Below are positions 41,824 through 56,931 of a stretch of 64,000 bases of DNA, in pieces (the first letter of the stretch is position 1; each line of letters opens with the position of its first letter). Location: the NCBI RefSeq assembly GCF_003334385.1, contig NZ_QOWN01000002.1; one strand, 5' to 3'. Source of the stretch: Escherichia coli (GTDB lineage Bacteria > Pseudomonadota > Gammaproteobacteria > Enterobacterales > Enterobacteriaceae). The notes under the pieces were generated by a model. The model ran no database searches, was not told where the DNA came from, and worked only from the letters and a program-made list of their open reading frames with translations. Position numbers and translations under genes: made by a program.

Positions 41824-42120
41824 TTACTTCTCCTTAAACGAGACGATCAGTACGTCATGAATTACCGTAATTTTAAGATAAACCTGGCCTGTAACAAGCC
41901 TGGGTCTGTAAACATCCTGCCAGATAGTATGATCAGAGTAGGTGGTCATGCTTTTATAAAAGTCGCTCTCTGATAATCCAATGATAACATTACACATACC
42001 ATCAAAATCCAAACCTAACTCATCTGCATTTAACAGGGCACTACGTGTTGTACGAACTTGCCCGGCATTGACAAGTTTTTTAACCTGACTCAAACGTGTA
42101 TGTGGTGTGCGTTTTTCCAT
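41824..42120 (-). CDS. mqsR: mRNA interferase toxin MqsR (GCU-specific)
   Basis: 98 aa, MEKRTPHTRLSQVKKLVNAGQVRTTRSAL... is recognised. The toxin gene lies upstream of the antitoxin gene with a 1-nt gap. Confidence 0.96.
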   Translation of the reverse strand: MEKRTPHTRLSQVKKLVNAGQVRTTRSALLNADELGLDFDGMCNVIIGLSESDFYKSMTTYSDHTIWQDVYRPRLVTGQVYLKITVIHDVLIVSFKEK

Positions 42121-42148
42121 AACCCCCGCCTCCCTGTTACTTTAGTTA

Positions 42149-42230
42149 TAACCTAAAAGGTTAATTACAGCAATGAAAAAGCACCTAAAAGGTTAATTAC
42201 AGCAATGAAAAAGCACCTAAAAGGTTAGTT
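42149..42230 (-). promoter_or_regulatory. mqsRA promoter/operator with three ACCT-N3-AGGT (MqsA-type) palindromes in a 32-bp tandem repeat
   Basis: acctaaaaggt occurs at 42151, 42183 and 42215. The unit acctaaaaggttaattacagcaatgaaaaagc is repeated perfectly (42151-42182 and 42183-42214), followed by a 13-nt partial third copy. Confidence 0.8.
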
Positions 42231-42295
42231 AGATGTACGGAGATAGTGACCACACAAAACGTATTCTTTAAGGAAAGTGATTGACCATATAAGAA

Positions 42296-42316
42296 AGTGG
42301 CGCATTAGTAGCGCCA
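42296..42316 (-). terminator. putative ygiV terminator hairpin
   Basis: An inverted repeat tggcgc / gcgcca around attagta lies about 40 nt downstream of the ygiV stop. It is followed on the minus strand by ctttctt. Confidence 0.4.
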
Positions 42317-42356
42317 GTTTGAAGCAGGAATTTATAAGGGAAGCTGGAGTCAGGCA

Positions 42357-42839
42357 TCACGCCAACGGCACATAAACATCCGTTTCCAGTCGCTGCTCTG
42401 TCACCCCTTCGGCAAGATTGGTGTAGTGAAACAGAATCGGTGCTTTACGCATTTTCTCGCCGCTTGCAGGCAGCCAGTGGCGAATGATGCCCCATACCGT
42501 GTGTGAAATATCGTCCAGCTCGCCAACGTGGCGGGCCACGGCATAACGTCCACCGGTAAGTTCACCATTGCTCACACCATAACGATTATCGGGAATCGGT
42601 TCGCTAACGCTGCCGCAGATATCAAAGCGAAACGCTTCCGGTGCGGTGGTGGCAGGGTCGTCCCAGGCGACGCCAAAAGTCTGGCTTTGGTTAACAGGAG
42701 AAAGCCCCGTCTCTTTACGCCACATGATAAATTTCGCCACGCTGTAGTTGAGCAATTCAGGGCTACAGCGGTGCGGCAACATCGCCACAGGTATTGATGG
42801 GAAATCGATAATGTTTACATCCAGTGTCAGGTTTGTCAT
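42357..42839 (-). CDS. ygiV: GyrI-like small-molecule-binding domain protein YgiV
   Basis: 160 aa, recognised sequence and position. Confidence 0.9.
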   Translation of the reverse strand: MTNLTLDVNIIDFPSIPVAMLPHRCSPELLNYSVAKFIMWRKETGLSPVNQSQTFGVAWDDPATTAPEAFRFDICGSVSEPIPDNRYGVSNGELTGGRYAVARHVGELDDISHTVWGIIRHWLPASGEKMRKAPILFHYTNLAEGVTEQRLETDVYVPLA

Positions 42840-56157: not shown

Positions 56158-56931
56158 ATGTCAGTACCTCTCATTCTGACCATACTGGCGGGGGCAGCCA
56201 CGTTTATTGGCGCGTTTCTCGGCGTTCTCGGGCAAAAACCCTCGAACCGCTTACTGGCGTTTTCGCTAGGTTTTGCGGCGGGGATCATGTTGCTCATCTC
56301 ATTAATGGAAATGCTTCCTGCCGCACTAGCAGCTGAAGGAATGTCGCCTGTGTTGGGTTATGGAATGTTTATCTTCGGTCTGCTTGGCTATTTTGGCCTG
56401 GACCGCATGTTGCCACATGCTCATCCGCAGGATTTAATGCAAAAATCGGTGCAGCCGTTGCCAAAATCGATCAAGCGCACAGCCATTCTGCTCACTCTCG
56501 GCATCAGTCTGCATAACTTCCCGGAAGGGATTGCCACCTTTGTCACGGCGAGCAGCAACCTGGAGCTGGGATTTGGCATCGCACTGGCCGTCGCGTTGCA
56601 CAATATCCCTGAAGGTCTGGCAGTGGCAGGCCCGGTTTATGCGGCAACGGGGTCTAAACGCACCGCGATTCTGTGGGCGGGAATTTCTGGACTAGCAGAA
56701 ATTCTTGGTGGTGTGCTGGCGTGGTTAATCCTCGGTAGCATGATTTCCCCGGTGGTCATGGCGGCAATCATGGCGGCGGTTGCAGGAATTATGGTGGCGC
56801 TCTCGGTTGATGAATTAATGCCGCTCGCCAAAGAGATTGACCCTAATAATAACCCCAGCTATGGCGTACTATGTGGAATGTCAGTGATGGGATTCAGTTT
56901 AGTGCTGCTACAAACGGCGGGAATTGGTTAA
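56158..56931 (+). CDS. zupT: ZIP-family divalent metal transporter ZupT
   Basis: [25 protein letters not shown]... is recognised, 257 aa. The internal ATG of ORF 56116..56931 is taken. Confidence 0.95.

Follow-up and report, generated by a model that had tools for sequence, protein, structure and literature searches.

MqsRA is among the most studied toxin–antitoxin systems, and its physiological role is contested. The antitoxin MqsA recognizes the motif ACCT(N)3AGGT (PMC4894380; PMC5422877) and represses pRA, the promoter of the operon, whereas the toxin MqsR is not a co-repressor and instead destabilizes the MqsA–DNA complex (PMC3920265; PMC4803016). For Escherichia coli K-12, Soo and Wood reported that p-mqsRA "has two palindromes" (U00096.2 3166595-3166609 and 3166629-3166639), both of which were shifted by MqsA in electrophoretic mobility shift assays (EMSA; PMC4894380); the centers of these published palindromes lie 32 bp apart. 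Sun et al. likewise described two palindromes in E. coli and only one in Pseudomonas putida KT2440, and speculated that the number of palindromes affects the efficiency of repression (PMC5422877). The two-operator pRA of MG1655 gives 111 AU under repression (background, 104 AU) and 369 AU once derepressed, and mqsA is transcribed mainly from two constitutive promoters inside mqsR, pA1 and pA2, which are not regulated by MqsA (PMC6918082).

Several repressor sites around the -35 and -10 hexamers are likewise found at the L/S palindromes of yefM-yoeB and at regions I/II of parD, and in such multi-operator toxin–antitoxin promoters the spacing of the sites matters for cooperative occupancy (review PMC4803016). 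In yefM-yoeB and parD, however, the toxin is a co-repressor, whereas MqsR destabilizes the repressor complex (PMC3920265); extra sites at mqsRA are therefore not expected to act via conditional cooperativity. Here, we describe an mqsRA promoter with three operators, found in a 64,000-nucleotide stretch of E. coli DNA (the whole of which is called the window below), and we compare it with K-12, with other complete genomes, and with distant mqsR loci.

The operator array and its promoter

Between 42151 and 42227 the window contains three ACCTAAAAGGT palindromes spaced exactly 32 bp apart. Tandem Repeats Finder reported a single array at 42151-42231, with a period of 32, 2.5 copies, 97% matches, a score of 155, and the consensus ACCTAAAAGGTTAATTACAGCAATGAAAAAGC. 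In the raw sequence, the units 42151-42182 and 42183-42214 are identical without a mismatch and are followed by acctaaaaggtta, so that the plus strand from 42149 to 42231 reads ta-ACCTAAAAGGTTAATTACAGCAATGAAAAAGC-ACCTAAAAGGTTAATTACAGCAATGAAAAAGC-ACCTAAAAGGTTA-gttag and the sense strand of mqsR reads ...ctaac-TAACCTTTTAGGTGC-TTTTTCATTGCTGTAAT-TAACCTTTTAGGTGC-TTTTTCATTGCTGTAAT-TAACCTTTTAGGTTA-TAACTAAAGTAACAGGGAGGCGGGGGTT-ATG. Two 19-nt spacers thus separate three 13-nt repeats, and 30 nt lie between the array and the mqsR start codon. The string ACCTNNNAGGT begins at 42151, 42183, and 42215, which are its only three occurrences in the full 64-kb window; about 0.34 would be expected by chance, and three were reached in 0 of 100 shuffles. 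All three sites are exact matches to the MqsA operator definition, ACCT(N)3AGGT, and to its extended form, AACCT N3 AGGTT. A preliminary description of this DNA had claimed that the mqsRA promoter contains a perfect tandem duplication of 32 bp and, with it, a third MqsA-type palindrome at 32-bp spacing about 30 nt 5' of mqsR; Tandem Repeats Finder and the raw sequence agree exactly with its coordinates and wording of the duplication, and the motif positions and the open reading frame bear out the third palindrome.

Table 1. Coordinates of the features discussed, as positions in the window.
Feature	Coordinates	Strand	Remarks
mqsA, antitoxin and repressor, 131 aa	41427..41822	-	Protein identical to K-12 MqsA
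mqsR, toxin, 98 aa	41824..42120	-	Protein identical to K-12 MqsR
Shine-Dalgarno sequence of mqsR, GGAGG	42129..42133	-	
Putative -10 hexamer of pRA, TATAAC	42145..42150	-	Abuts O1
O1, proximal operator, TAACCTTTTAGGTTA	42149..42163	-	Perfect 6+3+6 palindrome; K-12 "palindrome 1"
Operator array	42151..42227	-	Three copies, 32 bp apart, of the 13-nt direct repeat ACCTAAAAGGTTA (sense TAACCTTTTAGGT)
Putative -35 hexamer of pRA, TTGCTG	42168..42173	-	Within the repeated unit
O2, middle operator, TAACCTTTTAGGTGC	42181..42195	-	Directly 5' of the -35 hexamer
Extra 32-bp unit	42183..42214	-	Not in K-12, which is 32 bp shorter here; since the repeat is perfect, 42151-42182 could equally be named the extra copy
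Orphan second -35 hexamer, TTGCTG	42200..42205	-	Product of the duplication
O3, distal operator, TAACCTTTTAGGTGC	42213..42227	-	Sequence and upstream flank as in K-12 "palindrome 2"
Terminator-like hairpin 3' of ygiV	42298..42316	-	Placed 32 bp farther from the mqsRA promoter by the duplication
Linked marker, synonymous A in zupT	56682	+	Minority allele in E. coli; 14.5 kb from the array

The array lies directly 5' of an mqsR-mqsA operon with a canonical MqsA, which scores 146.7 bits against TIGR03830 (cut-off, 61.8) and matches, over its own full length, the solved MqsA chains PDB 3GN5/3O9X. RefSeq records matching this region name the two open reading frames mqsR and mqsA and place ygiS downstream and ygiV, ygiW, and qseBC upstream. 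Besides the duplication, the operon departs from that of K-12 at a single position, a private synonymous SNP in codon 64 of mqsA (41631).

When aligned with window positions 41950-42450, K-12 MG1655 spans 469 nt against 501 nt, i.e., it is 32 bp shorter, and it contains just two copies of the palindrome, at 32-bp spacing. This agrees with PMC4894380 and with the preliminary description, in which the K-12 promoter was given two such sites; that description had called for this alignment and held that three palindromes in K-12 would remove the novelty, a case that does not apply. Thus, where the canonical PmqsRA has exactly two palindromes 32 bp apart, the window has three. The two promoters share the locus, both proteins, the operators TAACCTTTTAGGTTA and TAACCTTTTAGGTGC, the 32-bp spacing between operator centers, and the core promoter; identity to K-12 extends from the ATG over 109 nt upstream, which leaves the core promoter and the O1–O2 arrangement intact. 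They differ in that the window allele has one more 32-bp unit and hence three operators; a second, orphan -35 hexamer is present, and the distal site is placed at about -82. No description of a three-operator mqsRA promoter was found in the searchable literature, a scope to which the primary MqsA structural papers did not belong. As far as that literature goes, the three-operator promoter has no earlier description, yet as a change in the architecture of a well-known operator it is minor.

The best sigma-70 reading of pRA combines a candidate -35 hexamer, TTGCTG, with a 17-nt spacer and a candidate -10 hexamer, TATAAC. A simple promoter scan does not report this site because it demands that the -10 hexamer end in T. 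Support for the assignment comes from distant MqsR homologues (61-68% identity) with the same layout, in which, for example, TTGCCA is followed by 17 nt with AACC-N5-GGTT and by TAATAT, or a perfect palindrome is followed directly by TATAAT. Given a putative transcription start site near 42138, O1 would lie inside the -35/-10 spacer with its center at about -18, O2 would be centered at about -50, as K-12 palindrome 2 would be, and O3 at about -82. The 32-bp spacing corresponds to ~3.0 helical turns, and O1, O2, and O3 are on one face of the helix.

Copy number in E. coli and in other mqsR loci

The preliminary description had also proposed a survey of the 32-bp unit across E. coli, and we ran it on 5426 complete genomes with allele-specific queries, setting the E-value cut-offs to exclude partial matches from other alleles. 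Two palindromes were found in 2293 genomes and three in 3 genomes, and there was no genome with one or with four. The three-palindrome allele therefore accounts for ~0.13% of the complete genomes that bear mqsRA (3/2296). In ~3100 of the 5426 genomes (~58%), only the ygiV end matched the query (41950-42450), i.e., mqsRA is absent at the locus.

We also examined 80 mqsR loci from metagenomes, 29 of them E. coli-like and 51 distant. All 29 E. coli-like contigs recovered with MqsR had two palindromes 32 bp apart, and the exact three-copy string had no match in the metagenome contig collection. Among the 51 distant loci, 4 (L155, L156, L160, and L181) had a pair of perfect palindromes at a distance of 31-32 bp, joined by unrelated spacers, 9 had a single palindrome, and 38 had a degenerate site only; none had three. 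The recurrence of paired palindromes at ~32 bp in distant loci indicates that the two-site arrangement is old and recurrent. In common with the window, the promoters of P. putida KT2440 (PMC5422877) and of the environmental relatives have the ACCT-N3-AGGT motif in the -35/-10 spacer. In contrast to the window, the relatives mostly have no or one strict palindrome, or else two, with three in 0 of the 80 loci, and their paired operators are joined by unrelated spacer sequence, whereas those of the window form a recent perfect repeat.

Some further features of the distant loci (L154-L204) were observed about 60 nt upstream of mqsR, where a -35 hexamer like TTGCCA, a 17-nt spacer with AACC-N5-GGTT, and a -10 hexamer (TAATAT or TATAAT) abutting the palindrome are conserved. 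Many of the loci with a single site have an additional upstream half-site-like sequence, TTAACCnnnTTGCC, that overlaps the -35 hexamer.

In species-representative genomes, a search for ACCT-N3-AGGT palindromes in groups of three, 15-30 nt from one another, returned at least 120 loci (L005-L124), against ~1 expected by chance. Among the matches listed, these were mostly from Bacteroidota, Chloroflexota (Thermoflexales), and cyanobacterial metagenome-assembled genomes (e.g., L039 6820-6895, L050 1639-1719, and L094 250-335), and none of the matches listed had an MqsR or MqsA homologue within ~4 kb. The clusters listed are repeats unrelated to mqsRA; in appearance they are short palindromic elements, dispersed or in tandem (e.g., AAACCTGTCAGGTTT), or coding tandem repeats.

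Likely regulatory effect of the third operator

We consider it likely that the allele is a rare, heritable duplication that arose in a single event and added an in-phase third MqsA site, with a regulatory consequence that is most likely small. One slippage or unequal-exchange event between the native 13-nt repeats, TAACCTTTTAGGT, would have duplicated a 32-bp unit made up of one operator and the 19-nt spacer with the -35 hexamer. Neither the sequence nor the spacing of the core promoter and native operators is altered, and the added consensus site would sit about three helical turns farther upstream, at about -82, facing the same side of the DNA as the other two. MqsA dimers are predicted to occupy O3, since its sequence exactly duplicates that of a site bound in vitro, K-12 palindrome 2, which MqsA shifted in EMSA (PMC4894380). 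At most, repression of mqsR would become somewhat tighter or slower to lift.

The preliminary description had suggested tighter autorepression or a shifted MqsR:MqsA set-point, but the published expression values (PMC6918082) argue against a large effect. From our reading of the promoter, O3 would lie outside the RNA polymerase footprint. Since pRA is already near background when repressed, O3 is placed outside the footprint, and mqsA is largely uncoupled from pRA, the regulatory effect is most likely small: with repression nearly full, there is little room for tighter repression at steady state, and the supply of MqsA is independent of pRA. Most likely, then, the extra operator has little effect, the most to be expected being a somewhat lower basal level or slower derepression of mqsR.

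We think it unlikely, by comparison, that the third operator is adaptive, with three in-phase, bending MqsA dimers that cooperate or wrap the promoter and so provide markedly tighter repression or more switch-like derepression of mqsR, lowering basal toxin and raising the threshold for toxin activation in this lineage. Such a role would be in line with the placement of all sites on one face at ~3.0 turns and with the persistence of the allele through later divergence of the strains. The bend that MqsA imposes on DNA exceeds 55 degrees (review PMC4803016), and a repression complex of higher order could result from three such bends in phase. In the P. putida study, moreover, it was proposed that the presence of one operator or of two determines how efficient repression is (PMC5422877). 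However, there is no sign of a sweep, the allele being found in 3 of 2296 mqsRA-bearing genomes and in ~1% of its own haplogroup (see below); the K-12 promoter is already near background when repressed (PMC6918082); O3 would lie beyond the polymerase footprint; and three sites occur in none of the 80 metagenome loci. For a larger effect, MqsA dimers would have to cooperate or the complex would have to be wrapped, which the in-phase spacing and the bend make conceivable. Were neighboring dimers to cooperate, the added site, being in phase, could weigh more than assumed here, but in the searchable literature, which did not extend to the primary structural papers, we found no published evidence for cooperativity between MqsA dimers.

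Descent of the duplication and further alternatives

Of the three carriers, two are of human origin, N18-04097 from Canada and SCU-104 from the USA, and one, SW070917, is from wastewater in Galapagos. The window is identical to none of them, differing by 9-12 SNPs per 37-40 kb, and the four three-palindrome sequences differ from one another by 7-12 SNPs in 37 kb. Five SNPs within 37 kb (41631, 23556, 23772, 29262, and 31962) are private to the window and absent from every compared genome, which indicates that its source strain is not among the 5426 complete genomes searched; six SNPs of SW070917 are likewise common to no other genome.

Further differences among the carriers are the IS1 rearrangements seen in the yqi fimbrial region and the content of the selC site. 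The IS1 rearrangements arose independently in two of the three carriers, ~16 kb from the promoter on the ygiV/qseBC side (upstream of mqsR): in N18-04097 (L001 36720-38659), two IS1A copies join ubiK to a yhaL/yhaK segment, an arrangement unique among the 5426 genomes, and in SW070917 (L003 36944-37641), IS1B joins ubiK to glgS. At the selC site, SCU-104 (L206 1-27260) carries an island that encodes an integrase and a phosphoethanolamine transferase and includes iha and ato genes, SW070917 (L207 47174-50000) has an element with a CbtA/YeeU toxin–antitoxin pair, and N18-04097 is arranged as in K-12. Beside this island, in yicJ/yicI, SCU-104 diverges by 1.3-1.5% from N18-04097 and K-12. The dnaA-selC region is star-like, with 6-11 SNPs per 47 kb among N18-04097, SW070917, and K-12; for this comparison, the SCU-104 record is rotated differently and has a different island.

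The substitution A264V in parC (window 38759) is shared by the window and SCU-104 and is absent from N18-04097, SW070917, K-12, 720632, and WCHEC005784; codon 264 lies outside the quinolone-resistance region (around codons 80-84). The window and SCU-104 also have an intact ygiL-yqi fimbrial region in common. These two shared characters make SCU-104 probably the closest relative of the window among the carriers.

Most other local SNPs are private, star-like, and uninformative, and the zupT marker at 56682 is the only informative site. It is A in all four three-palindrome sequences and G in the two-palindrome strains K-12 and 720632. An exact 61-mer with the A was found in 230 of the 2498 genomes matching this segment (~9%), and one member of this haplogroup, WCHEC005784, has two palindromes; the three-palindrome allele occurs in ~1% of the haplogroup. 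Independent random duplications would all fall within a ~9% haplogroup with a chance of roughly 1e-3, which favors a single inherited duplication over recurrent slippage. Thus, one duplication probably occurred within the zupT-A haplogroup and was inherited while the carriers diverged, a reading that rests on one linked SNP.

With R for the 13-nt repeat TAACCTTTTAGGT and s for the 19-nt spacer, the native K-12 promoter is R-s-R and that of the window is R-s-R-s-R without a mismatch. This is the product expected of short-homology duplication, by slippage or unequal sister-strand exchange, when the 13-nt repeats of R-s-R are misaligned, and the junctions thus suggest that replication slippage or unequal exchange, with the two R copies as its substrate, gave rise to the duplication. 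The reciprocal product of such an event, with a single operator and the -35 hexamer deleted, was seen in 0 of 5426 genomes; its absence fits selection against loss of the promoter and could equally mean that event rates are low. The three-palindrome allele apparently persisted during the divergence of its carriers and so is not strongly deleterious, although persistence is also what a mildly beneficial allele would show.

The same repeat structure could make the locus a hypermutable, contingency-like array whose copy number flips by slippage, the three-copy state having arisen separately in each strain. We regard this as highly unlikely. The native promoter is a 1.4-copy tandem repeat flanked by 13-nt direct repeats and is in that respect a substrate for slippage, the carriers differ in accessory islands and geography, and the local SNP pattern is star-like at all sites except one. 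That one site, however, places all carriers within a minority haplogroup, as set out above. Moreover, the spread in copy number is extremely narrow (2293 two, 3 three, 0 one, and 0 four), not the frequent variation among close strains that defines phase-variable loci, and a 32-bp unit in only two or three copies is unlike classical contingency repeats.

We give slightly less credence still to an action of the duplication that is independent of MqsA, in which phased T-tracts and their curvature, the 32-bp upstream shift, or the orphan -35 hexamer would alter basal promoter strength. In addition to a consensus operator, the duplication does add a 32-bp displacement of upstream DNA and two helically phased T-tracts (hence more intrinsic curvature), such that T4/T5 tracts lie at -38, -60, -70, -92, and -102 from the ATG with spacings that are multiples of ~10.6 bp. 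A second TTGCTG is also present (42200-42205) because the 32-bp unit includes the -35 hexamer. Against this, no change relative to K-12 was found from the -10 hexamer to 77 nt upstream, so that the UP-element region is intact, and we know of no upstream activator of pRA. The sequence 17 nt 3' of the orphan hexamer, GCTTTT, matches TATAAT at 2 of 6 positions and does not have A at position 2, and the promoter scan reported no site at the orphan -35; a new promoter built on the duplicated hexamer was therefore rejected, there being no usable -10 at 16-18 nt. Finally, although assemblers can miscount tandem repeats, we rejected an assembly or sequencing artefact as next to impossible, since one short read is longer than the entire array (77-81 bp) and the allele is present in four independent sequences, the window and three complete genomes from different laboratories, no two of them identical.

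Together, the near-invariance of two operators (2293/2296) and the missing single-operator product argue for constraint on the native arrangement. We hold it to be quite unlikely, more so than an adaptive role in general, that operator number is a heritable polymorphism that resets toxin control through a cooperative DNA-bending complex of three MqsA dimers. If this were true, basal transcription of mqsR would be lower and the threshold of MqsR release higher or sharper, and the lineage would differ in MqsR-dependent phenotypes, e.g., phage defence, bile-salt tolerance, and persistence. If, as we expect, the extra site has little effect, the allele is a rare, probably near-neutral cis-regulatory indel. 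As a natural three-operator allele with unchanged MqsR and MqsA, it is a ready-made isogenic test, with which operator number and helical phasing as tuners of autorepression, and cooperation between MqsA dimers, could be tested.
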